Source: Clostridia bacterium
GTDB lineage: Bacteria; Bacillota; Clostridia; UMGS1883
Length of the DNA stretch: 64,000 bases
NCBI GenBank assembly: GCA_045591265.1
Contig: JAZNSQ010000019.1
Location: 16,067-80,066, forward strand
Direction of reading: 5' to 3'
Position 1 is the stretch's first letter. Each line of letters starts with the position of its first letter. The notes under the pieces were generated by a model. That model saw only the letters and a list, made by a program, of their open reading frames with translations. It was not told where the DNA came from and searched no databases. A program made the position numbers and the translations under genes. Positions 6,649-46,171 of the stretch are shown piece after piece.

Positions 6649-7512
6649 ATGAACATTATCGAAGCAGAAAACCTTTTCTTTAAGTATGATGAGGAGGGAA
6701 ACTCCTACGTGCTTAAGGATTTAAACTTAAATATAGAAAAAGGAAGCTTTACCGCAATAATCGGTCATAACGGAAGCGGGAAAAGCACCTTTGCAAAGCA
6801 TCTTAATGCAATACTGCTTCCAAGTGGCGGAAGTGTGACGGTTTGCGGGATAGATACTTCCGACAAAAAGAAAATCTACGAGCTTCGCAAAAATGCAGGG
6901 ATGGTATTTCAAAACCCCGACAACCAAATTGTTGCAACTATTGTAGAAGAAGACGTTGCTTTCGGTTTAGAGAATATCGGTATTGAAAGAGAAGAAATGC
7001 ATTCGCGCGTTAAAGAAGCACTTACGGCAGTTGATATGTATGAATTTCGCACTCGCGCACCGCATCTTCTTTCAGGCGGGCAAAAGCAGCGCGTTGCAAT
7101 AGCAGGAATTCTTGCGATGAACCCCATGTGCATTATTCTTGATGAGCCAACCGCAATGCTTGACCCTCTTGGTCGCCGTGAGGTGCTTTCAACCATAAAA
7201 AAGCTAAATCGGGAAAAAGGCATAACGATAGTACTCATCACTCACTATATGGATGAAGCGTGCAGTGCCGACAGGGTGGTTGTGATGAATAAGGGGGAAA
7301 TTTCGCTTGACGCATCCCCAAAAGAAATATTTAAGGACGAGGAAGCACTTAAAAAACTCGGGCTTGACGTTCCGCAGAGTGTTGCTCTTTTAAACAGACT
7401 TAAGGAAGAAGGATTTAATCTTTCAGATAGTGCGCTTACTCCCGAAGAATGTGCACAGGAGATACTAAAGCTTTTTAAGAAAAATTCCGAAGGTAAGGAA
7501 AACCCAAAATGA
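6649..7512 (+). CDS. ecfA1: energy-coupling factor transporter ATPase EcfA1
   Basis: Walker A GHNGSGKST, LSGGQKQRVAIAGILA, ILDEPTAMLD. Start at ATG 6649 after GGAAGGA. It lies in the conserved ecfA1-ecfA2-ecfT-truA order. Confidence 0.9.
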   Translation: MNIIEAENLFFKYDEEGNSYVLKDLNLNIEKGSFTAIIGHNGSGKSTFAKHLNAILLPSGGSVTVCGIDTSDKKKIYELRKNAGMVFQNPDNQIVATIVEEDVAFGLENIGIEREEMHSRVKEALTAVDMYEFRTRAPHLLSGGQKQRVAIAGILAMNPMCIILDEPTAMLDPLGRREVLSTIKKLNREKGITIVLITHYMDEACSADRVVVMNKGEISLDASPKEIFKDEEALKKLGLDVPQSVALLNRLKEEGFNLSDSALTPEECAQEILKLFKKNSEGKENPK

Positions 7513-8351
7513 TAAAACTTAAGAATATATCACATTTATATAATAACGGGCCTGATATGACTCCTTCCGTAACAGATATAAACCTTGAAATTAAAGAGGG
7601 CGAATATATCGGAATTGCGGGCCACACGGGAAGCGGAAAAACAACAGTTGCCCAAATTCTTGCAGGGCTCATTTTGCCACAGAGCGGTGAAATAGAAGTA
7701 AGCGGCGAGGCATCTTGCGATTTTAAAAAAACTGCAAGAATGCTGCGTGAAAAGGTTGGCATCGTTTTTCAGTATCCCGAGCATCAGCTTTTTGAAGAAA
7801 CGGTTTATAAAGATATTGCCTTTGGACCTAAAAATAAAAAGCTTTCGGAAAAAGAAATTGACGAATGTGTCAGAGAAAGTGCGCGTCTGACTCATCTTGA
7901 CGAATCACTTTTTGACAAGTCCCCGTTTGAGCTTTCGGGCGGTCAGAAAAGGCGCGTTGCAATAGCAGGCGTGCTTGCAACTAAACCTAAGGTTCTTATT
8001 TTAGATGAGCCTGCTGCAGGACTTGACCCATTAGGCAGAAAAAAGCTTTTTTCGGAGCTTAACCAGATACGAAAATTAAATAACACCGCGATTGTCCTTA
8101 TCTCTCACAGTATGGAGGATTTGGCGGAAAATGTTGAAAGAATAGTAGTTTTAAATAAAGGTAAAAAGGTGGCAGATGCACCGGTAAAAGAGATTTTTTC
8201 AAACTATTCTCTTTTAAAGGAGAGCGGGCTTGATGTGCCTGAAATTACCCGCATTGCGCACCTTATCCGTAAAGGCGGAGTAGATTTAGGCCACGATATC
8301 TATACAATAAATGATGCCGTGCGCGAAATAAAAAAGGTGCTGGGGGTGTAG
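7509..8351 (+). CDS. ecfA2: energy-coupling factor transporter ATPase EcfA2
   Basis: GHTGSGKTT, LSGGQKRRVAIAGVLA, ILDEPAAGLD. ATGA overlap with ecfA1. Confidence 0.9.
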   Translation: MIKLKNISHLYNNGPDMTPSVTDINLEIKEGEYIGIAGHTGSGKTTVAQILAGLILPQSGEIEVSGEASCDFKKTARMLREKVGIVFQYPEHQLFEETVYKDIAFGPKNKKLSEKEIDECVRESARLTHLDESLFDKSPFELSGGQKRRVAIAGVLATKPKVLILDEPAAGLDPLGRKKLFSELNQIRKLNNTAIVLISHSMEDLAENVERIVVLNKGKKVADAPVKEIFSNYSLLKESGLDVPEITRIAHLIRKGGVDLGHDIYTINDAVREIKKVLGV

Positions 8352-9161: not shown

Positions 9162-9892
9162 AATATAAGCTGACGTTATCTTATGACGGCACCAATTACC
9201 ACGGGTGGCAGTTTCAGAAAAACGGAATAACAATTCAGGAAGTTTTGGAAAATGCTCTTTCCAAAATCTTTAACTGCAATATAGCCGTTACGGGCTGTTC
9301 ACGCACCGATGCAAGAGTTCACGCAGAAAAATACGTGTGCTCTTTTGAAGGGGAAACCACAATTCCCACTTCGAAAATTGCAACCGTCATAAACACAAAA
9401 CTACCCGAGGATATCCGCGCGTATCACTGTGAAGAAGAAAAAGAAGACTTTAACGCAAGGTTTGACACCAAAAAAAAGGCGTATGAATACAGAATTTTAA
9501 ACAGGGAGGTAGCCGACCCCATTCTTCGCAACTACGTCTGGCACTATCCTATAAAGCTTGATGTAAAAAAGATGCAAAAAGCCGCGAAAATAATTCAGGG
9601 CAAGCGTGATTTTGCCTGCTTTTGCGCGGCAGGATCAAGTGCTAAAACAACGGTGAGAAATCTTATGCACCTAAGCGTAAAAAAAGAGGGGGATATAATC
9701 ACCATTCGTGCCGAGGCAGATGGGTTTTTATATAATATGGTGCGCATAATTGTAGGCACTCTTATCTATATTGGTAACGGCAAGCTAAAAGTGCAGGACC
9801 TTAAAGAACTTATGGAAAATAAAGACCGGCGTCTTATGGGCGTTACAGCACCGCCCGAGGGACTTAGGCTGGTGGAGGTTTGCTATGAATAA
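9158..9892 (+). CDS. truA: tRNA pseudouridine(38-40) synthase TruA
   Basis: MKYKLTLSYDGTNYHGWQFQ N-terminus and catalytic RTDARVHA motif; follows ecfT as in Firmicutes. Confidence 0.9.
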   Translation: MKYKLTLSYDGTNYHGWQFQKNGITIQEVLENALSKIFNCNIAVTGCSRTDARVHAEKYVCSFEGETTIPTSKIATVINTKLPEDIRAYHCEEEKEDFNARFDTKKKAYEYRILNREVADPILRNYVWHYPIKLDVKKMQKAAKIIQGKRDFACFCAAGSSAKTTVRNLMHLSVKKEGDIITIRAEADGFLYNMVRIIVGTLIYIGNGKLKVQDLKELMENKDRRLMGVTAPPEGLRLVEVCYE

Positions 9893-11983: not shown

Positions 11984-13169
<1,186 letters not shown>

Positions 13170-13187: not shown

Positions 13188-13694
13188 ATGCAGTCATTAG
13201 AGGTTATTTCTGTCAATTTGTGGCAGATAGTGATTTCACTGTTAAACTTAGTAATTCTTTTTGTCCTCGTAAAAATGTTTTTGTTTAAGCCCGTAAACAA
13301 GATGCTTGAAAAACGTCAAAGCGAAATTGACGAGAGATACAATCAGGCGGATGAGGCAAAACGCATCGCTGAAGAGGACAGACTTTTATGGGATGAAAAG
13401 ATGAGCGCAGTTAAGAGTGAATCGGAAGAAATACTTAAAAAAGCTCACTCTAGTGCTATAAAGAAAAGTGATGCAATCGTTTCTAAAGCAAAGGAAGAGG
13501 CAGAGGGTCTTCTTCGTCAGGCTGAAAATGAGATAAATCTCGAAAAGAAAAAAGCCCGCGAAGAAATGAAAAAGGAAATTGTTGACGTTTCAGTATCCTT
13601 AACCAATAAGCTACTGGAAAGAGAAATAAACGAAGAGGATCATCACAAGCTTATAGATTCGTTTATAGGGAAAATAGGTGAAAGCGATGAGTGA
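13188..13694 (+). CDS. atpF: F0F1 ATP synthase subunit b
   Basis: N-terminal TM helix followed by a long charged coiled coil; operon position. Confidence 0.85.
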   Translation: MQSLEVISVNLWQIVISLLNLVILFVLVKMFLFKPVNKMLEKRQSEIDERYNQADEAKRIAEEDRLLWDEKMSAVKSESEEILKKAHSSAIKKSDAIVSKAKEEAEGLLRQAENEINLEKKKAREEMKKEIVDVSVSLTNKLLEREINEEDHHKLIDSFIGKIGESDE

Positions 13695-33593: not shown

Positions 33594-33722
33594 CTCACTT
33601 CATTTGTATTCATAATTATATAAACAGGTGAAAATAGTTCCTCAAATTTTGTCGAAAAGAGGGGTAGTGGCATATTATAAAAAGGGGGCAGTCCCCGAAA
33701 TTTGACGAAAGGCAGGATATAT

Positions 33723-33965
33723 ATGCGAGATTTATTAGATTTTGATATATTCACTGATAAAGATATGTGTCCTTTAAAAAAGGAAGATAACTGTCAGTGC
33801 TTAGAGGATTTACCGCTTGCATATTCATACGTTCCTTATCAGCGCTTTGAAGAGCCGTACTCAAAACAAAAAGCGCTCGAGCGCGGAACGGCATATGCAT
33901 CACTTGACAAGCCATACGGCGTGTATGGAAACGAATTTAAGGTGAGGGGAGTGTATGATTTATGA
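33723..33965 (+). CDS. cotJA: spore coat-associated protein CotJA
   Basis: LPLAYSYVPYQ motif characteristic of CotJA; precedes cotJB/cotJC. The track ORF begins at an upstream TTG; ATG 33723 is preferred. Confidence 0.8.
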   Translation: MRDLLDFDIFTDKDMCPLKKEDNCQCLEDLPLAYSYVPYQRFEEPYSKQKALERGTAYASLDKPYGVYGNEFKVRGVYDL

Positions 33966-34231
33966 TGGAAAAAGAAAATATGTCACGGGCAGAAATGCTT
34001 AAAAAGGTACAGCAGGCAGATTTTCTGGCGTATGACCTCCAGCTTTATCTTAACACTCACCCAAACTGCAAAAGAACACTCAATATGTATACAAACGCAG
34101 TAAAAGAAGCAAAAAAAATAAGGGAAGAATTTGAAAAGGCTTATGGCCCGCTTACGGCAGGGGCTTCATCCTCACTTCCCCCGTGGCAGTGGATAAACAA
34201 TCCGTGGACATGGGAATATGAAAGGAGTTAA
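33962..34231 (+). CDS. cotJB: spore coat protein CotJB
   Basis: LLKKVQQADFLAYDLQLYLNTHPN motif typical of CotJB; overlaps the cotJA stop. Confidence 0.85.
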   Translation: MMEKENMSRAEMLKKVQQADFLAYDLQLYLNTHPNCKRTLNMYTNAVKEAKKIREEFEKAYGPLTAGASSSLPPWQWINNPWTWEYERS

Positions 34232-34236
34232 GATAT

Positions 34237-34821
34237 ATGTGGGTTTATGAAAAAAAGCTTCAGTATCCGGTAAAAATAAAAAATCCTGACCCCAGAATGG
34301 CGCAGGTAATTCTTTCACAATATGGTGGACCTGATGGTGAGCTTGGCGCATCGCTTCGCTACCTCAGTCAACGTTTTTCAATGCCAAACGAAATCTGTAA
34401 AGCAACACTAAATGATATCGGCAGTGAAGAGCTTGGGCACCTTGAAATGATTGGAACGATAGTCTATCAGCTTACAAGAAATTTAACTGAAAAACAGCTT
34501 AAGGAAGCAGGCTTTGACAAGTATTTTGTTGACCACTCGACTGCAATTTACCCTGCTTCTGCAGCAGGTGTGCCCTTTAATGCCTCATATATTCAGTCTA
34601 AAGGTGACGTAATAGCAGACCTCACCGAAGACCTTGCAGCAGAGCAAAAGGCACGTGCAACGTATGATAATATCTTAAAGCTTGCTGATGACCCTGATGT
34701 AATTGACCCGATTAAGTTTCTCCGTCAGCGCGAGGTAGTTCACTTCCAGCGCTTTGGCGAGGCACTTCGCACAGTTCAGGATATGAGTGACAGAAAGTAC
34801 TACCCGACAAAAATGAGATAA
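34237..34821 (+). CDS. cotJC: spore coat protein CotJC (manganese catalase family)
   Basis: Ferritin-like di-metal motifs (ELGHLEMIG, REVVHFQRFGEAL). The 3' ~75 nt is duplicated at 39231-39310. Confidence 0.9.
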   Translation: MWVYEKKLQYPVKIKNPDPRMAQVILSQYGGPDGELGASLRYLSQRFSMPNEICKATLNDIGSEELGHLEMIGTIVYQLTRNLTEKQLKEAGFDKYFVDHSTAIYPASAAGVPFNASYIQSKGDVIADLTEDLAAEQKARATYDNILKLADDPDVIDPIKFLRQREVVHFQRFGEALRTVQDMSDRKYYPTKMR

Positions 34822-34883
34822 ATTATAAGGAAATCTAAAAAAGTCCAGAGCAAAAGACAAATACTGTAATTGATATAAAAATA

Positions 34884-34920
34884 ATAAACCCGTTTATTGA
34901 GCTTCAATAAACGGGTTTAC
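34884..34920. terminator. bidirectional terminator (cotJC / XRE gene)
   Basis: AAACCCGTTTATTGA-GCT-TCAATAAACGGGTTT perfect hairpin. Confidence 0.8.
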
Positions 34921-35123
34921 TTATCTGTGCCTAAAATGTAATCTGCACTAACGTCATAATACTTACAAAGACTAATAAGATGATGTAAGGGCAATTCGTT
35001 TGCACCCCTTTCGTATCGTGCATACATGGTTTGCGATGTTCCCAAAATTTTTGCTATTTCGGCTTGCGTTTTATCATGGTCTTCCCTCAGGTCGCGTATC
35101 ATTTTAACATAATACGAGCTCAT
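34917..35123 (-). CDS. XRE-family helix-turn-helix transcriptional regulator
   Basis: 68 aa; HTH segment QAEIAKILGTSQTMYARYERG; divergent from the giant surface-protein gene. Confidence 0.8.
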   Translation of the reverse strand: MSSYYVKMIRDLREDHDKTQAEIAKILGTSQTMYARYERGANELPLHHLISLCKYYDVSADYILGTDK

Positions 35124-35243
35124 AAAAACACCTCATTACGCGTTATATACATATATTATACCAAGTAAACAAGTTTACTATTGACTTTAGTAAATATTTG
35201 TACTATAATCGCATTACGATAAATCAGGAAAGAGGAAATATAA

Positions 35244-38200
35244 ATGAAGAAATTTTTAAGCTTATTATTAATAACTATAATGTTATTTTCAACATTGATT
35301 AATATACTGCCAAGTACCGCTTTCGCGGAAAGTAGCGGGGCTTACTGGTACTATGGAGATTACTATGAAGGTAGTCCTTACACTATTTACCTATGCGGTA
35401 ATGGGACAATAGATCTCCGCGAGATTGATTGGGAAAGTTACCAATCCATTGTGATAGAGGATGGGGTTACTGTTGTAGGTGAGGCGGGGGTAAATGCCAT
35501 ATACTCATTTAACAGGGGCGTTCTGACAATTAGTGGAACGGGATCGACCTATTTTTTCCACGGACACTGGCAGGATTGGTCACGATGGAGTGATAAAATA
35601 ACAAAATATGTTTTCAACGAGGGCATTACTGAAATTGAAGAAGATACTGTAATAGGAGAAAATGTAACAAGCGTAGTTTTGCCAAGAAGTCTGGCAGTTA
35701 TGGACACAGCCTGGAACGGCGTTTTTAACTTAACACCTAACCTAACCGATGTTTATTATAGAGGAACGGAAGAAGAATGGAATAACGTAAAAATGGGAGC
35801 GGGCAGTGCACATATTGAAGGAGTGACAATGCATTATAATTATGGTTCAACAAACACAACTAACTCTACCTCTGATATGAAATCATATGCGCAAGAAGCG
35901 GGAATATCATATGGCGACTATTATTATAATATTTTTACACAATATGCCACAATAGCAAAGGACGATTCTACAGAAATGATGTTTTCCGCGAATGTTATTA
36001 CTAATGGTGAAAGTCATAGCAATTTAAAAATGTATCTTACTCAAGGTCCAGACAAGATGTTGCCTGTTGATACCTGGGCTAAGACCCCTATAAAACCAGG
36101 GGAATTTTTTGAAGCAGATAGAAAAATCTATTTGCTTTTACAAAATACCGCTACAGGTCAATCATCCTCAAAACTCACAAAATTAAAGGTTGTTTCTGAA
36201 AATATTAAAAATGACGTTATATGGGAACAAGATGATGTTGACGAGAAATTTTCTTTCAAATTGGGAAATATGATAAGCTTTACTATACCAGATACAGTGC
36301 CTGTGTTTGGTGGAGCTGAGGTTGGAATGGATTTGGACTTTATTCCCATATCTGTTGAATATGCACATCCTGATAAACTAAATATAGTTTTTGGCACTGA
36401 AATAGCGAGTCAAAAAGGTGAAAAAGACAGGGTGTGGGGTGATGTGAAATACTTTAAAGATTTCTCTTTCGAAAATTATAAAAAGGATTTTAAAAAAGCC
36501 ATTTCTAAGAGTAATCGTTCAATAAAGCAGCTTAGAAATGATTATAAAATGACAAATAAAGTTCCGTTGAAAAGTTTTAAAAATATAAGCGGAAATGTTG
36601 ATGTTGCTGGTTATGCAGAAATGAAATACATAAATGGCCAATGGCGATTTGTTGAAGGTATGCTTGGTCTTGATGCAGAAATCGGCTACAAATATCAGGG
36701 CAATAATGTTATTTATTTTATTCCCATCACATACAGTATAGGTGGAAACGTTGGTGCAGGTATTGATGGTGTTATGAAAAATCTTAGTGCGGATACATTT
36801 ACACCACAATTTGAGGGTTATTTAAATGGTAGAATATCTGCTACTATTGGTGGGGGTATAGGTGCAAGCTTTGCTAAACTTGTATATGCCGATGGCACAG
36901 GAACTCTTAATGTAAGAAAGTCGCTTAATGACGAATACTTAAAAAGTTGGGTAGATGCTCACGCTGACTTTGTTGTATGTGAGGTAGGTTTCTTTGCCCT
37001 CTTAAGAAAGACTTTTGCGCAAGGAGAGTGGTTAATATACGAAACGGGTAATCCTGATGGTCTTATACCATATAATACTATGTCTTTAATGAGTATTAAT
37101 GATATTTATTCAAATTATGATAAAGATACGGTTTACGAATTTACTCCACGAAACGAAGAAGAGACTACCTGGCTTGGCGATTCAGCACCAATTTCATTAT
37201 TCGAAGCTGAATATACAGGGCAAGATGCAAAACTTTTAAGTGAAAATGTCTATTATAGTGCAGAACCACAAATAGATTTTATTAATGGAAAAAAGGTTAT
37301 GGTATGGGTGTCTGATAACAAAGATAGAGATATCTATAATAAAACCATGCTTGTATATTCCATATATGACGAATCAAGCGATACATGGTCTGCACCCTTG
37401 GCTGTAAGTGATGATGGAACCTCAGATACATATCCTAATTTTAATAATGGATATGTTGTATGGCAAAACAATAACTCTATGATGGACGAAAACACTACTA
37501 TTTCAGGATACGCTAAAGACTGTGATATTTGTATTGCAAAATTTAATGGAACAGGCTTTGATGAAGCTATAAAAGTAACAGATAATCAGATAATGGATTC
37601 AATGCCTATGGTCTTTGCTGATGAAAATGGTGTTAATGTGGTGTGGATTACCAATACCGAAAATGATATATTGGGGACAACTGGAAAAAATAGTATTTAT
37701 TTTAAGAAACTTGGTGAGACAGAACAAATTATAGAAGATAATCTTAATGCTATTACAAGTTTATCTTTAGGAAATATTAATAATGAAGTAAGCATTGCAT
37801 ATTCATTTGATGAAGATAATGATTTGGCTACAATTGATGACAGAGATATTTATGTGTATAGTGATGGAAACACAATAAACTTAAATAATGATGACATTAT
37901 TAATTCAAATCCTTTGTTCTCTGGGAATAAGTTGTATTGGTATAGCGATAATAATATAGAATACACTTCGGACTTGAGTACGGTAAACCAAATGTTTAAC
38001 TCTACAGGCATCTCTACTGACCAATTTAATGTGTATACAAATAATAATGGTAAAAGTGCTGTTTTTTGGACAGAATCAGATGAAACGGCTACTGAGGTCT
38101 ATGTATCATTATTTGAAAATAATAAATGGAGCAATCCGATAAAATTAACTGATTTAAATATTAAAATAAAATCTCCTCATGGTATTTTAGATGGAAATGG

Positions 38201-39230
38201 AAATATAGCAGTTTCATTTACTGATATTGCAGTAGATGGTGAAAATATTATTGCAAACTTGTACGTGCTTGATGCAATTCCATCTTATGATATATCAGTT
38301 GCAAATGTGGAATTTAATGAAAACAACTTAGTTGAAAATTCGGATTTTCCAATTTCTGTTGACGTCGTAAATGATGGGGAAAAAGATATAAATGAATATC
38401 AAATAACTATTTCTGACGGACATGGAGTAAATAATACATATACTTTTAGTGATAAACTAAAGGCTGGTACTGCAGTAACACAAACCATACAATACAGTGT
38501 TCCAACTACAATGAGCAAACAAACAATAAGCATAAGTGTTACAATAACTGATGGTGAAGAATTTGATGTTTCAAATAATAGTTGTGATTTGATTTTGGGT
38601 AATGAAAGAATATCCCTTTCTAAAATTGAATTACATGAAGCGGGAGAAAGGTATCAAATAATATCTGAAATTATAAATGAAGGCTTTGCAGACTCTCCTG
38701 ATATTACTGTTAATTTAAGAAAAGACTCCGTAGATGGAACTATCATACACAAAAGATATATTTCTTCCTTATCTTCACAAGGCAGTAGCGAAATTGTTTT
38801 TGATGAGCCAATAGCTGGTATAGAATACGAGGATGGAATAAAGAAACTCTATGTAACTGTTGAATGTAATGATTCAGTAGAGGACTCTGAATATGTTTTA
38901 TTACAAGAAATGCAGGCAGATAAAGAATTTGAGCAAATGATTGTCTTAACCAACTATAATTCTGATACTAAAATTCTTAACAGTAATGCTATCGTAACGA
39001 ATAATACTGATACAAAACAAGATTTTGTAATGATTTTCGCTGTGTATGACGGGGATAGATTGCTCGGCATAGATTATAGTGACGGCAGTGTTTTGCCATA
39101 TAATGAAACATCTGTAGATGGATTTGTTAGTTTAAGTGATTATAAAACTCAATATACAGTACGTTCGTTTTTGTGGCAGGATTTAGAAAAAATTATGCCA
39201 CTATGTGAAAAAGATGAATATTTACAATAA
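35244..39230 (+). CDS. large secreted cell-surface protein (signal peptide, BspA-type LRR-like N-terminal module, CARDB-like repeats)
   Basis: Signal peptide MKKFLSLLLITIMLFSTLINILPSTAFA. The LRR_5/BspA-like block ends in YYRGTEEEWNNVKM. C-terminal Ig-like CARDB-type segments read ISVDVVNDGEKDINEYQITISDG. There is no LPxTG. The gene looks more AT-rich than its flanks by eye. Confidence 0.75.
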   Translation: MKKFLSLLLITIMLFSTLINILPSTAFAESSGAYWYYGDYYEGSPYTIYLCGNGTIDLREIDWESYQSIVIEDGVTVVGEAGVNAIYSFNRGVLTISGTGSTYFFHGHWQDWSRWSDKITKYVFNEGITEIEEDTVIGENVTSVVLPRSLAVMDTAWNGVFNLTPNLTDVYYRGTEEEWNNVKMGAGSAHIEGVTMHYNYGSTNTTNSTSDMKSYAQEAGISYGDYYYNIFTQYATIAKDDSTEMMFSANVITNGESHSNLKMYLTQGPDKMLPVDTWAKTPIKPGEFFEADRKIYLLLQNTATGQSSSKLTKLKVVSENIKNDVIWEQDDVDEKFSFKLGNMISFTIPDTVPVFGGAEVGMDLDFIPISVEYAHPDKLNIVFGTEIASQKGEKDRVWGDVKYFKDFSFENYKKDFKKAISKSNRSIKQLRNDYKMTNKVPLKSFKNISGNVDVAGYAEMKYINGQWRFVEGMLGLDAEIGYKYQGNNVIYFIPITYSIGGNVGAGIDGVMKNLSADTFTPQFEGYLNGRISATIGGGIGASFAKLVYADGTGTLNVRKSLNDEYLKSWVDAHADFVVCEVGFFALLRKTFAQGEWLIYETGNPDGLIPYNTMSLMSINDIYSNYDKDTVYEFTPRNEEETTWLGDSAPISLFEAEYTGQDAKLLSENVYYSAEPQIDFINGKKVMVWVSDNKDRDIYNKTMLVYSIYDESSDTWSAPLAVSDDGTSDTYPNFNNGYVVWQNNNSMMDENTTISGYAKDCDICIAKFNGTGFDEAIKVTDNQIMDSMPMVFADENGVNVVWITNTENDILGTTGKNSIYFKKLGETEQIIEDNLNAITSLSLGNINNEVSIAYSFDEDNDLATIDDRDIYVYSDGNTINLNNDDIINSNPLFSGNKLYWYSDNNIEYTSDLSTVNQMFNSTGISTDQFNVYTNNNGKSAVFWTESDETATEVYVSLFENNKWSNPIKLTDLNIKIKSPHGILDGNGNIAVSFTDIAVDGENIIANLYVLDAIPSYDISVANVEFNENNLVENSDFPISVDVVNDGEKDINEYQITISDGHGVNNTYTFSDKLKAGTAVTQTIQYSVPTTMSKQTISISVTITDGEEFDVSNNSCDLILGNERISLSKIELHEAGERYQIISEIINEGFADSPDITVNLRKDSVDGTIIHKRYISSLSSQGSSEIVFDEPIAGIEYEDGIKKLYVTVECNDSVEDSEYVLLQEMQADKEFEQMIVLTNYNSDTKILNSNAIVTNNTDTKQDFVMIFAVYDGDRLLGIDYSDGSVLPYNETSVDGFVSLSDYKTQYTVRSFLWQDLEKIMPLCEKDEYLQ

Positions 39231-39310
39231 GAAACAGCGCTTCGGTGAGGCACTTCGCACTGTTCAGGATATGGCAGACAGAAAGTACTACCCAACAAAA
39301 ATGAGATAAA
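39231..39310 (+). repeat. displaced duplicate of the cotJC 3' end (encodes ...QRFGEALRTVQDMADRKYYPTKMR-stop)
   Basis: About 68/75 nt identical to 34747-34821, starting immediately after the stop of the giant gene; followed by a terminator. Confidence 0.85.
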
Positions 39311-39344
39311 AAAAAGGGATGCAAATTGCATCCCTTTTTTATTT
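39309..39344. terminator. bidirectional terminator (ancestral cotJC terminator / GH3 gene)
   Basis: AAAAAAGGGATGCAA-TT-GCATCCCTTTTTT perfect hairpin. Confidence 0.8.
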
Positions 39345-41053
39345 TAGCAATAAACTTGTCTGAGCTTTGGTGTGGTATCAACAGGTGATTTTCCTACAAT
39401 CGGAATTTCGCCGTAAACTGCTTTTACAAAAGCTTTTTGCGCTTCTTCGCTTGGGTTATAAATGTTAAAGTATGTATTTGCACCGGGCATGACGTCATGA
39501 CCAATGTAAGGATAACCTAAAGATACACCGATAGATTTATCCGTCGCCTTACTAAAGGTGAACATAAACGGAAGAAGCTTATCCCCCGCGAAGTGTGGCA
39601 TACCTGACGGACGATGTCCTGCAAGGTGTGCCGCATGGATAATAAGGTCACATTCATTTACGAATTTATTGTAGATAGCAAGCATATCAAAATAATCAGT
39701 ACCATTTTCGGCAAAGTTATTTGTAAGTATAACCTCTGCACCGCGCTTTTCAAATTCCGCCTTCATAACCTTAAGAGATTCAAAGAAGTCATCAGAATAT
39801 GAAGAGAATGAAATAGCAACCTTCTTAATATTTTCTTTCTTAACAGGAACAATATTTGAAGTATTTCTTAGCATTGTAACTGATTTTTCGGAAAGCTGTC
39901 TGTTAATTTCTGCGGTTTCCTTTGCAAGCTCCTCAATTTCTATATCTTCGTCATAGAAAGAACCATCAAAAAGACCCATTTTTTCTTTAAGGTCAAGCAC
40001 TCTCTGGCATGAGTCATCAATTCTTGACATAGGAATTCTGCCGTCCTTAACAGCATTGCAGAGAGTATCTAGAGCGTTTAAGTCAGCTGCTAAAAGAAGG
40101 TCATTACCAGCATTTATCATACGGATAAGCTTTTCTTCTTCAGAACACATTGTTGAAAGTGCACCCATAGTAATAGCATCAGTAACAATAACACCTTCAA
40201 AACCAAGCTCTTCACGAAGAAGACCAGTGATAATCTTCTTTGAAAGTGTGGCAGGTACGTACTGACCGTTAAGCTTTTCATCATCAACTGCGGGGAAGGA
40301 AGTATGACCAACCATTACTGTCCATACACCATTATCAATTGCATGCTTAAAGGTTTTTGCCTGAGTTTCTTTCCATTCTTCATAGCTATAAAGCATTGAT
40401 GTAGAAACATAGTGGCTGTCGCGGAATTCATAGGGGTCACATCCCGGGAAGTGCTTTGCACAAGCGGGGATATGCGCTGACTGCATACCCTTGATTGCTG
40501 CAACAGAGTGCTTTTTGATTAATTCTATATCATCATCAGAAAATGATCTTCCCTGGCTTATACCATTAAATCTGTTACACAAGTCAACAACGGGTCCCCA
40601 GCGCCATGTTGCACCGCCGGATTTTATTTCGCGGGCAATATTTCTTGAAATCTTGAATGTAAGGTCTTCATCATCAGCCGCACCGATAGCATAGCCTGAT
40701 GCAGTTTTTGTAGCATCACAAAAAGTATATCCTGCGCCATTTTCGCAGTCCACACCTACAAGCATGGGTATACGCGCCTTTTTACCAACTCTGTCTAAAA
40801 AGTCCTTACTCTCTCTTGTGGTAAGGGGGTTAAGTCCGCCTATTTCTGCCATGTTAGCTGTTTGCATTCTTATTCTGCCACAGTACCACATACCCGAAAA
40901 CTGCTGTTTTTCCATAATTTCGTCCATTTCTTCGTAAGTGCGGGCAACCTGTTTTCCATCAACTTCTTTATCAAAGAAGTCAAGCTGATTTACCAAAAGA
41001 AGCTGGGAGACTTTTTCTTCCAAAGTAAGCTCATTTAAAGCCGGTTTTTTCAT
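39344..41053 (-). CDS. glycoside hydrolase family 3 (NagZ-like beta-N-acetylhexosaminidase / beta-glucosidase)
   Basis: GH3 N-terminal domain pattern (GVDCENGAGY, KHFPG, GHTSF). Start at MKKPAL, preceded by GGAGGTATAT. Confidence 0.75.
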   Translation of the reverse strand: MKKPALNELTLEEKVSQLLLVNQLDFFDKEVDGKQVARTYEEMDEIMEKQQFSGMWYCGRIRMQTANMAEIGGLNPLTTRESKDFLDRVGKKARIPMLVGVDCENGAGYTFCDATKTASGYAIGAADDEDLTFKISRNIAREIKSGGATWRWGPVVDLCNRFNGISQGRSFSDDDIELIKKHSVAAIKGMQSAHIPACAKHFPGCDPYEFRDSHYVSTSMLYSYEEWKETQAKTFKHAIDNGVWTVMVGHTSFPAVDDEKLNGQYVPATLSKKIITGLLREELGFEGVIVTDAITMGALSTMCSEEEKLIRMINAGNDLLLAADLNALDTLCNAVKDGRIPMSRIDDSCQRVLDLKEKMGLFDGSFYDEDIEIEELAKETAEINRQLSEKSVTMLRNTSNIVPVKKENIKKVAISFSSYSDDFFESLKVMKAEFEKRGAEVILTNNFAENGTDYFDMLAIYNKFVNECDLIIHAAHLAGHRPSGMPHFAGDKLLPFMFTFSKATDKSIGVSLGYPYIGHDVMPGANTYFNIYNPSEEAQKAFVKAVYGEIPIVGKSPVDTTPKLRQVYC

Positions 41054-44450: not shown

Positions 44451-44575
44451 AAAATCTACCCTTGTCATTTTTTGACATATTTTATATATAACAATTATAT
44501 CACATAATAAAAACAATTCAATAAGGAAATAAAATCCACAGAAAACAATTAAAAGATTAATTAGTCTAAACTGTG

Positions 44576-44809
44576 TTAAAAATCATGACACCCCTCGACA
44601 AAAATATTATATTTTTCAAATAAGCATACAATTTCTTCGACCATTTCAAAATCGGAGTATTTATCGTTTTCAATTATTTTTTGTATTTCGGATAATAGCT
44701 CAAGAGCAGTAGAATTAACTATCTCATTTGCATCAATTTCAAAATCCTGGATATGATATTTTACATAGTTAGAAATATATTTGTTTAATAATTGAGTTTT
44801 AATAAGCAT
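44576..44809 (-). CDS. small acidic hypothetical protein (77 aa)
   Basis: ATG preceded by GGAGGTGATAAA; divergent from the XRE gene; AT-rich. Confidence 0.5.
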   Translation of the reverse strand: MLIKTQLLNKYISNYVKYHIQDFEIDANEIVNSTALELLSEIQKIIENDKYSDFEMVEEIVCLFEKYNIFVEGCHDF

Positions 44810-44931
44810 TTTATCACCTCCTGAGACAAAATTTAATTTTGTCTCATTTTTACAACCAATTATAACATTCTTTGATAGTAAAATCAAGACAGAAGTGTAA
44901 AAAACGAGACAAATTTGATGTGGTGAATGCT

Positions 44932-45177
44932 ATGAAACAGAGAACTGAAGCAAATGGCAAAAATCTTATAGGAGAGAGACTTAAGGAGTTAAGAAGAAAT
45001 TCTAATCTATCTCAACGTGATTTGGCAAGGCAACTGCAACTTATTGGAATTGATATGGATAAGAATGTGATAACTCGAATTGAAACAAATAAGAGATACG
45101 TGACTGATTTTGAACTTCAGGCGCTTAAGGAGATTTTTAAAGTCAGCTATGATTACTTAATCGACGGAGAAAAATAA
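44932..45177 (+). CDS. XRE-family HTH transcriptional regulator
   Basis: LKELRRNSNLSQRDLARQLQLIG HTH; 82 aa from ATG 44932. Confidence 0.75.
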   Translation: MKQRTEANGKNLIGERLKELRRNSNLSQRDLARQLQLIGIDMDKNVITRIETNKRYVTDFELQALKEIFKVSYDYLIDGEK

Positions 45178-45195
45178 AATAATATGTTTAGATAA

Positions 45196-45236
45196 GGAAA
45201 AGAGACGATTTACGGATGGTAAATTGTCTCTTTTTT
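45196..45236 (+). terminator. terminator hairpin H1 (copy of a repeated ~40-bp hairpin element)
   Basis: GAGACGATTTAC-GGAT-GGTAAATTGTCTC followed by TTTTTT. Confidence 0.7.
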
Positions 45237-45407
45237 GCAAAATAGTAAATTTATTTGTCGCTATTATTCTTTGCAGTGTCAAGCATTTTATCATCTCCTG
45301 CGTATTATAGCATATAAATTTTAATTTTACAACAGAAATTTCTAATATATTTTAAAATCTAATTTTATCATATAATATAAATAAGATATGATATAAGGAT
45401 GATTGAT

Positions 45408-45575
45408 ATGGCATTTACACCCAGAGAAACGAAAAAGAAGGTCAAGGCAGGATATAAAACTTTGTATATCACTGATGAATTGGTTGAAAAAATTGATAAT
45501 CTTGCGAAAAAGCACGAGACAAGCTTTAACAATATTGTGATAAGCATTATAGAGGATTTTTTTAAAGAAAAATAA
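45408..45575 (+). CDS. small ribbon-helix-helix (CopG/Arc-like) protein, 55 aa, unannotated
   Basis: RBS AAGGATGA. It has a beta-strand KTLYITDELVEKI followed by two helices. It is followed by hairpin H2. Under 60 aa, so absent from the ORF track. Confidence 0.5.
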   Translation: MAFTPRETKKKVKAGYKTLYITDELVEKIDNLAKKHETSFNNIVISIIEDFFKEK

Positions 45576-45580
45576 ATAGA

Positions 45581-45622
45581 AGAGACAATTTTACCATCGG
45601 TAAATTGTCTCTTTTTTTCTGG
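45581..45622 (+). terminator. terminator hairpin H2 (second copy of the hairpin element)
   Basis: GAGACAATTTTACC-ATC-GGTAAATTGTCTC followed by TTTTTTT. Confidence 0.7.
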
Positions 45623-45645
45623 TGTCGGCGAGGGGGACAGATGCT
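45622..45645. repeat. degenerate partial copy of the tmRNA 3' end (candidate distal att remnant)
   Basis: CTGGTGTCGGCGAGGGGG versus the genuine 3' end CTGGTGGAGGCGAGGGGGG at 45825-45843. Confidence 0.5.
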
Positions 45646-45824
45646 ACGCATCTTGCCTGCTTGACGACCCAAATGCTTTGCATTTCGGTACCCGTCTGCG
45701 CACCAAAAAGCTAAAAAACTTGCCACAGGCAACTTTTTTAACGCTTTTTGCCCACTTTGGGTTCAACCCCCCTCTATAGTAAAAAAAGAAAGAGTATACC
45801 TTGCGGTACACCCTTTCTTTTTTT

Positions 45825-46171
45825 CTGGTGGAGGCGAGGGGGGTTGAACCCCTGTCCGAAAACATATTCACACAGGCATCTCCGAGCGCAGTCACTTAAT
45901 TAACATTCCCTCTGCCGTATGGCAAGTGACAGCCTCACGGTTTTAGTAGCTTCATTTGTCATGTATGGCGCAAAGCTTTGCCATATCACGTTCACCACTT
46001 TGTGACGCCCTTATCCAAGCCGTGGTCCTCCCGGTAAGGACGGCTACCTAATTAGGCAGCGTAAGCTAAATTTTTGTTAGCGTTTAATTTTAAAGTTTGG
46101 AATTTTAACGTAGTTTCCGCTACGGCTCGCTTCCCATGCTTCAACATCCCCGTCGAAACCGGAACGCCCCC
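45825..46171 (-). ncRNA. ssrA: tmRNA (SsrA)
   Basis: 5' end GGGGGCGTTCCGGTTTCGACGGGGATG. 3' tRNA-Ala-like end CGGACAGGGGTTCAACCCCCCTCGCCTCCACCA. An internal tag ORF ends ...AAC AAA AAT TTA GCT TAC GCT GCC TAA (..NKNLAYAA). It lies just downstream of smpB. Confidence 0.9.

Follow-up and report, generated by a model that had tools for sequence, protein, structure and literature searches.

We analysed a 64,000-nucleotide stretch of a contig from a Clostridia bacterium (JAZNSQ010000019.1, assembly GCA_045591265.1; hereafter the window), in which the sporulation gene cotJC is intact and is followed by 4.4 kb of foreign DNA and then by a second, non-coding copy of its own 3' end. On balance, this locus is probably the fossil of a site-specific integration into cotJC which was later reshaped by homologous recombination. 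The two sides of the inserted cassette differ in ancestry: up to the cotJC stop codon the window is 98–99% identical to conspecifics in which the site is empty, and from the far side of the cassette to approximately 40.9 kb the identity is 83–90%.

Empty sites were found in two relatives, L001 (Logan SRR24653631, an 11-kb contig encoding an identical CotJC protein) and L083 (ENA ERZ28436054, a relative in the CotJC 90% cluster). In both of them cotJC is followed by a terminator and then directly by a glycoside hydrolase (GH3) gene, as a preliminary description of this DNA had anticipated, and therefore the window represents the derived, insertion-bearing state. The cargo (34823–39234, 4412 bp), which is missing from L001 and L083 when these are compared with the window by blastn, has a GC content of 0.334, against 0.39–0.40 in the flanks. 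Furthermore, the GC content at third codon positions (GC3) of its main gene, which encodes a 1328-aa secreted protein, is 0.244, against 0.33–0.41 in 20 other genes of the window. The cassette is thus compositionally foreign, and the earlier impression that it is richer in AT than its flanks was correct.

The last 75 nt of cotJC (34747–34821) are repeated at 39235–39309 with 68 of 75 positions identical (90.7%), and the base after each stop codon is also the same (A at 34822 and A at 39310). This agrees with the previous estimate of about 90% identity and some seven mismatches, although the start of the distal copy, then given as 39231, had been placed 4 nt too far left. The pair gave E = 6.6e-24 in a 650 × 650 nt comparison (blastn-short), and chance matches elsewhere were only ~9–13 nt long. 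The proximal copy (34747–34822, plus strand) comprises the last 75 nt of the gene and one further base, starting from its QRFGE codons, and 74 of the 75 positions are identical in L001. The distal copy (39235–39310, plus strand) is a non-coding remnant consisting of the last 25 codons and the stop codon of a divergent cotJC allele. It starts 4 nt past the stop codon of the 1328-aa open reading frame (ORF), and its 5' edge is the C of the Arg codon (CGN) in the invariant HFQRFGE motif. Both cassette junctions sit just past stop codons. Four of the seven mismatches between the copies are synonymous third-position changes and the other three fall in one codon (AGT to GCA, Ser to Ala), giving a synonymous divergence (dS) of ~0.43 and a non-synonymous divergence (dN) of 0.04 over few sites. 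As the mismatches are mostly synonymous, with a single codon changed, the distal copy diverged while it was still coding. The mismatches are spread across the whole 75 nt, and the longest exact run common to both copies is 17 nt.

Directly 3' of the distal copy lies a bidirectional terminator with a perfect 15-bp stem (39310–39340), followed by the convergent GH3 gene. This terminator is the ortholog of the one between cotJC and GH3 in L001, from which it differs by compensatory stem changes. The distal copy is therefore followed by the ancestral type of cotJC terminator, in a divergent allele, as had been suggested earlier.

In order to establish the ancestry of each flank we compared the window with the two empty-site relatives. 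The left flank is 97.8% identical to L001 over 9.1 kb, with cotJB and cotJC at 99.4% up to the base past the stop codon (34822); cotJC itself has 3 differences in 585 nt (dS 0.024). Beginning with the first base of the distal copy, L001 and L083 match the window at 89–91% of positions in the remnant, at 78% in the terminator and at 83% in GH3. The ancestry changes at 34822 and at 40880–40944, the latter being a maximum-likelihood estimate, with 283 mismatches in 1711 nt to its left and 1 in 280 (99.6% identity) to its right. The 3' part of GH3 (39344–40943, minus strand) is thus a divergent allele, ~83% identical in nucleotides to those of L001 and L083, within an intact gene that encodes 569 aa (39344–41053, minus strand). 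In this GH3 block dS is 0.84 and dN 0.08 (0.02–0.08 outside the block). L001 and L083 differ from each other by 3–6% and both carry the other GH3 allele, which indicates that the proximal copy is native and that the distal copy belongs to a divergent block together with most of GH3. Such a bounded and abrupt change of ancestry, with high dS and low dN/dS, is that of a block imported by recombination.

Three histories fit these data. The whole 6-kb block (cargo, remnant and GH3) may have been imported into an L001-like background; an L001-like tract may have been imported on the left, ending at the heterology; or a 1.65-kb divergent tract may have been imported later, its left end stopped by heterology at the right junction of the cassette. 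As all three are homologous exchanges bounded by the cassette, the seven mismatches are allelic differences that arose by exchange at its borders, and not the divergence of an att (attachment) site borne by an element. Two claims of the preliminary description are not supported in consequence. The end which completes the gene did not arrive with the insertion, because it is native (74/75 to L001, within a cotJB/cotJC region of 99.4% identity), and a foreign cotJC allele did not replace the end of the gene, since the foreign allele is the block of cotJC remnant and GH3 that extends to ~40.9 kb, whereas the functional cotJC is native. Deletion between the repeats was also considered as the source of the empty sites in L001 and L083 and was rejected, because their GH3 allele differs from that of the window by 17%; these sites are not excision products of this chromosome.

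Within the species, cotJC of the window (34237–34821) and of L083 (294–878) show strong synonymous divergence (dS 0.33, dN 0.002). As L001 and the window are nearly identical in this gene despite the divergence of L083, the region is a mosaic of recombined alleles. In L083 (2855–3395, coverage ~2x) only ~90 nt from the start of the ABC-F gene are present before the sequence passes into a D-Ala-D-Ala carboxypeptidase-like gene on the opposite strand; this is either a rearrangement or an assembly chimera. Exact-protein look-ups found no other contig carrying the giant protein, the XRE regulator, the GH3 or the ABC-F protein of the window. The species has no genome among the GTDB species representatives, where cotJC is matched at 74% nucleotide identity at best, and a degenerate pattern of the cotJC end had no match in JGI metagenomes. 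A search for ABC-F homologs, by which the right flank might have been prolonged in L001-like strains, gave only relatives with at most 90% amino acid identity. Outside the species, the closest relatives of the GH3 (71–74% identity) do not adjoin cotJC and hence provide no outgroup for the locus.

Insertions at cotJC in other species

We screened 160 cotJC loci from other species, the loci taken in from Oscillospirales genomes being the best 80. Three further species have an intact cotJC followed by a cargo and a cotJC 3' remnant, with unrelated cargoes. The insert of L032 (5.7 kb) encodes a 209-aa ORF and a 1614-aa helicase of DpdF/PsyrT-plus-GajB-like type, that of L058 (2.7 kb) an 801-aa UvrD-like protein, and that of L076 (0.6 kb) a small membrane ORF. 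The remnant in L032 is an internally deleted second cotJC, in which residues 63–82 are fused to residues 185–201, and not an att-type scar; hence not every locus need share one origin.

A pattern search for orphan fragments running from RFGE to the end of the gene identified L115, an IMG/VR contig in which a 4.3-kb element splits cotJC. A 13-nt core, CGGTTTGGGGAAG, is duplicated at its left junction, attL (9323–9335), and at its right junction, attR (13656–13668), and in silico excision of the element joins the two halves of the gene into a canonical CotJC C-terminus. Besides an Amt-PII transporter gene, the element has one for a 495-aa large serine recombinase (LSR) with Resolvase, Recombinase and Zn_ribbon domains, which ends ~260 nt before attR. 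The element supplies no cotJC-like end of its own. The switch from foreign sequence to cotJC occurs at the same column in the distal copy of the window, in the distal copy of L076 and in the attR of L115, and 3 nt later in L058. The proximal copy in the window likewise starts at the position of the L115 att core. In the 13-nt region which corresponds to this core, the two copies of the window differ at two positions (CGCTTTGGCGAGG vs CGCTTCGGTGAGG), the 17-nt identical run lying elsewhere in the repeat.

A search for a cognate integrase, which the preliminary description had proposed, had a divided outcome: LSRs are present at RFGE-site junctions in L115 and in L167, where a 48%-identical LSR lies ~300 nt past the junction, but none was found in the window. 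Only these two insertions were retained at the RFGE site, L115 because both ends are seen and L167 because a recombinase is adjacent. Unusual CotJC C-termini in L031, L072, L131, L154 and L167 were considered as attL junctions but could be natural variants of the tail, and of these five only that of L167 was kept.

A second position in cotJC is also used. In ~45 distinct viral or proviral contigs (among L092–L167, IMG/VR) homology to cotJC starts exactly at GGNGGNCCNGAYGG, with foreign DNA before it, and the same 5' junction, at codon ~29 in the motif SQY|GGPDGE, is found in L005, the nearest GTDB species (other examples are L154, 8562–10016, and L115, 7442–8900). In 48 loci at this 5' GGPDGE site an LSR gene ends 6–60 nt before the junction. 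A large family of elements and prophages thus splits cotJC near its 5' end. The ORFs beside the 5' junction of L092 were examined as possible recombinases and rejected, since they hold Mrr_cat and a polyvalent protein; the recombinases came from L154 and L115. In L115 (7442–13750) two LSR elements interrupt a single cotJC, one at its 5' GGPDGE site and the other, the 4.3-kb element with Amt-PII, at RFGE near the 3' end. In L117 (10498–10700) the last 31 nt of cotJC and a hairpin form a 60-nt unit, present in ~4 tandem copies directly after the gene, which is another sign of structural instability at the cotJC 3' end.

Origin of the cassette

By comparison with these loci, the history of the cassette would have begun with the integration of an LSR element at an att core on the RFGE codons, ~75 nt before the cotJC stop codon. 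The distal copy (39235–39310) would be the attR side of this event, at which the right end of the element was joined to the rest of cotJC and to its original terminator. An attR-type junction is indeed present, with element DNA abutting the att core and the remainder of cotJC following it, and because the window, L076 and the attR of L115 switch at the same column we read the distal copy as an attR-type scar of serine-recombinase integration. Site-specific integration, as proposed in the preliminary description, accordingly remains plausible from the coincidence of the distal 5' edge with the L115 attR junction, but not in the form in which the element itself supplied the end that completes the gene.

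The left side of the cassette is different. No attL junction with a split gene is present in the window: cotJC reads past the core to its normal stop codon (194 aa), and foreign DNA starts one base after this stop. Since LSR integration does not duplicate 75 nt, and since both attL and recombinase are missing, an extra step would have restored the gene on the left. In this second step the split cotJC was presumably made whole, with loss of the recombinase and of attL, leaving cotJC, a 4.4-kb cargo and a 75-nt remnant; candidate routes are that the end was copied from the distal side, that an intact allele recombined on one side only, or that the element bore an end of its own. The seven mismatches are the product of homologous recombination with a different lineage, limited by the heterology that the cassette introduces. 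The cargo would now be a two-gene module in which an XRE repressor controls the promoter of the 1328-aa secreted protein. As the longest exact run of the repeat is 17 nt and no recombinase is present, the cassette is probably immobile now and fixed in place.

Several observations weigh against this reconstruction. The window has neither attL nor a recombinase remnant, and the LSR origin is deduced from one junction position and from analogy with other species, in which both ends of an RFGE-site element are seen at a single locus, L115. LSR integration alone does not duplicate 75 nt, so that an additional, unobserved step is required. Element-side sequence beside the distal copies shares little, the motif GAAACAG being common to the window and L076 only. 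The donor lineage of the divergent block was absent from the databases searched, where the nearest GH3 is that of L001 itself (87% amino acid identity), and to the right of the block only 280–400 nt of high-identity sequence could be compared, as the contigs of the relatives end there. Finally, the window belongs to a metagenome-assembled contig in which a chimeric join is possible, but there is no shared repeat longer than 17 nt to cause one.

A possible, if rather doubtful, alternative is that no site-specific recombinase was ever involved. A foreign fragment may have been captured by homology-facilitated illegitimate recombination, with homology at one end (in cotJC if this was the left end, in GH3 if it was the right) and an illegitimate joint at the opposite end, displacing a resident or donor cotJC 3' end downstream as an orphan. 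Both the mechanism and such displaced orphan 3' ends are documented (PMC5361080 and references therein). An ancestry switch at one border of the cassette, the termination of the divergent block within GH3 on the other side, the location of both junctions just after stop codons, the unrelated cargoes of the four loci and the deleted second cotJC of L032, which is not an att-type scar, all agree with it. Nevertheless, the remnants of the window, L076 and L058 start within 6 nt of each other, two of them at the exact joint between element and cotJC in L115. By our own estimate such a coincidence has a probability of ~1e-3 if junctions are uniform over the last 200 nt, and this precision is not expected of illegitimate joints.

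It is considerably less likely that the cassette is a mobilisable element without integrase, similar to cis-mobilisable elements (CIMEs) or to psi-SCC elements (from staphylococcal cassette chromosome, SCC), which carried its own cotJC-like 3' end in attP, integrated at an L001-like empty site and can be moved in trans by a recombinase whose gene lies elsewhere. Elements that have no recombinase but do have att sites at their ends are known as a class (PMC5704250, PMC6323972), and the window does contain foreign cargo flanked by direct repeats of a gene 3' end, with an empty site in relatives and an att site and cognate recombinases in other genomes. However, the copy which completes the gene is of native and not of element type, the element in L115 brings no cotJC-like end, and the mismatches extend over all 75 nt of the repeat with no identical run longer than 17 nt. 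Moreover, the 64-kb window has no recombinase, the first 1.6 kb to the right of the distal copy are not of the L001 type, and the cassette was not found at the same site elsewhere with unchanged host flanks, its right flank being a divergent allele. An assembly artefact, namely a chimera of two co-occurring strains or species made by the metagenome assembler, would account for the abrupt ancestry switches in a metagenome-derived NCBI contig of 172.6 kb, but is highly improbable, given that the left junction has no shared sequence, the longest repeat match (17 nt) is below usual k-mer sizes, the GH3 ORF runs intact and without a break across the right switch, and three assemblies of other species independently show this architecture.

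The integration scar reshaped by allele exchange therefore remains our preferred reading of the locus. A more general idea, which we consider improbable at present, is that the RFGE codons act as a platform for cassette acquisition in gut Oscillospirales, where serine recombinases encoded elsewhere insert recombinase-less cassettes (defence helicases, giant adhesins, transporters) and a copy of the cotJC 3' end keeps the gene intact. If this were true, a sporulation gene would serve as a slot comparable to those of SCC or integrons, and the 75-nt repeats would also allow RecA-dependent spread between lineages.

Cassette genes and neighbouring features

The cassette follows the cotJ operon, all on the plus strand, with cotJA (33702–33965; Pfam CotJA, 2.8e-13), cotJB (33962–34231; Pfam CotJB, 1.5e-25) and cotJC (34237–34821; Pfam Mn_catalase, 3.3e-57), the last being an intact 194-aa member of the Mn-catalase family and of the type native to the species. 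The cargo starts with a bidirectional terminator hairpin with a perfect 16-bp stem (34885–34919), now shared by cotJC and the gene of an XRE-family HTH regulator (34917–35123, minus strand, 68 aa; Pfam HTH_3, 9.9e-14; NCBIfam RstR-like, 6e-11, under the family cut-off). The only other gene of the cassette is that of the 1328-aa protein, a full-length ORF (35244–39230, plus strand). No recombinase gene is present between the repeats, and tblastn with two cotJC-associated LSRs found no LSR in the 64-kb window, in agreement with the earlier statement that there is no integrase. The cargo had no match in phage or plasmid collections. No second copy of the cassette was found in any collection, and the giant protein is unique, its next relative having 40% identity.

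The two genes diverge from a 120-nt control region, which contains a near-consensus promoter with a -35 box TTGACT (35181), a 17-nt spacer and a -10 box TATAAT (35204–35209). A palindrome, AGTAAAC-AA-GTTTACT (35164–35180), and an imperfect copy of it (35188–35204) bracket the -35 box and overlap the -10 box, making 35164–35209 (plus strand) the promoter and putative operator region of the giant gene. An XRE repressor gene divergent from a sigma-70-type promoter with operator-like palindromes leads us to predict, from sequence, an XRE-controlled gene pair.

Behind a typical signal peptide, the 1328-aa protein consists of a head of ~200 aa, which is variable, and an all-beta body of ~1100 aa, which is conserved. 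It had no sequence match in Pfam (E up to 10), NCBIfam, PADLOC or PDB. It belongs to a family of uncharacterised proteins of 1300–1800 aa from uncultured Clostridia, which have in common the ~1100-aa body and differ in their N-terminal heads, annotated as LRR_5, DUF6273, C-type lectin or CARDB. The Pfam domains for BspA-type LRR_5 and CARDB, annotated in homologs, were not found in the window protein. Its C-terminus aligns within 1–20 residues of the ends of 25–26 homologs (31–41% identity), showing that the junction 4 nt past the stop codon did not truncate it. An AlphaFold (AF2) model of residues 200–1328 is all-beta with a pLDDT of 78, and the best Foldseek matches are integrin alpha, (trans-)sialidase and alpha-2-macroglobulin-like proteins, that is, beta-propeller and Ig-like architectures. 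The TM-scores of these matches are low, as would be expected for a multidomain chain. We suggest that this Sec-secreted, beta-propeller/Ig-like protein is probably a strain-specific surface or adhesion factor.

Along the giant gene, GC content falls from ~0.38–0.40 in the first 700 nt, corresponding to the variable head, to 0.28–0.31 in the last 1.7 kb, and head and body may be of different origin. A homolog with 38% identity (P0003), encoded in L082, another metagenome contig, is flanked by two 99%-identical units of ~200 nt (7416–7617 and 12502–12703) resembling miniature inverted-repeat transposable elements. The terminal inverted repeats of these units, GACAAGGGGACGGTTCT, measure 17 nt, and the contig ends just past the second unit. 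The window contains no counterpart of the units or of their inverted repeat. Homologs in L086 (6001–10218) and L088 (6001–10269) are single genes wedged directly after housekeeping genes (azlD, valS) in unrelated contexts, with no XRE neighbour and no flanking repeats. Members of the giant-protein family seem to travel alone, as accessory genes whose N-terminal heads can be exchanged.

Elsewhere in the window, a lipid-kinase-like gene and the 3' end of the tmRNA gene (45826–46171, minus strand) enclose an AT-rich islet of ~1.3 kb (44520–45842, GC 0.27–0.32). This islet contains a second XRE-type ORF (44872–45177), a 103-aa ORF and a 58-aa ORF of ribbon-helix-helix type, and no integrase was seen in it. 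The tmRNA 3' end and the upstream T-run (45820–45842) are partly duplicated at 45614–45636, a pattern reminiscent of an old att scar left by integration at ssrA.

Comparison with known systems

A passage in bioRxiv 10.1101/2021.11.22.469490, citing Abe et al. 2013, names cotJC as one of the sporulation genes in which phages and transposons integrate, and serine-recombinase gene-intervening elements are well described in sigK, spsM, spoVFB and gerE (PMC4191935, PMC5595907). The cotJC insertions resemble these elements (skin in sigK, SPbeta in spsM, vfbin in spoVFB and gin in gerE) in that the target is a mother-cell spore-coat or sporulation gene, LSRs lie beside the junction in related loci (at RFGE in L115 and L167, at GGPDGE near the 5' end in 48 loci), the att core is short, and the forms range from prophages to small decayed cassettes. 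In contrast to genes carrying intervening elements, cotJC of the window is uninterrupted and reads through intact, its 3' end occurs twice, and the remnant and the gene come from different allelic lineages. As the cassette has no recombinase, developmental excision is neither needed nor possible. Because neither a recombinase nor an attL junction with a split gene was found, we classify the locus as a fixed accessory cassette at an old att scar, and not as an intervening element.

SCCmec and psi-SCC elements of staphylococci reside at the 3' end of rlmH (orfX), where the serine-recombinase att site lies within a gene which remains functional. Their cargo is variable and includes surface and defence genes, and recombinase-less cassettes bounded by direct repeats of the site exist. 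The cotJC locus has the same general features, namely an att site in the 3' end of a conserved gene that stays functional, variable cargo and recombinase-less cassettes between repeats. Nevertheless, SCC repeats are ~15–18 bp long and near-identical, whereas that of the window has 75 nt with seven mismatches, and the cotJC cassette shows no evidence of mobilisation in trans or of cassette arrays. CIMEs, which derive from integrative and conjugative elements (ICEs; PMC5704250; ICEberg 2.0, PMC6323972), also have no integrase or transfer genes and are flanked by attL/attR-like repeats at a gene 3' end. However, CIMEs keep functional att sites for the integrase of a related ICE, usually a tyrosine recombinase, whereas the window has no attL and its flanks show allele exchange instead of clean integration.

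The displacement of C-terminal ends in rhs, contact-dependent inhibition and type VI secretion loci (PMC5361080) is similar in that the 3' fragment of the upstream gene is displaced downstream of acquired DNA, no recombinase is present and the ancestry at the junction differs between sides. Those systems exchange toxin tips together with immunity genes, whereas here CotJC is unchanged, the cargo is functionally unrelated to it and the edge of the remnant coincides with a recombinase att core.

The locus thus illustrates how a site-specific integration in a sporulation gene can decay into a fixed cassette without recombinase while its target becomes intact again, and how an integration scar can come to look like a diverged att repeat through later allele exchange. 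For genome scans, this implies that a duplicated gene terminus is insufficient to call an integrative element, and that the ancestry of both flanks needs to be checked. In gut Clostridia the 3' end of cotJC, in addition to the 5' site, is a recurrent spot for strain-specific surface and defence genes. Compared with the systems above, the cassette looks like the decayed form of a known kind of element, in which the target gene was restored and the allele carrying the scar was exchanged, a mechanism built from known parts.

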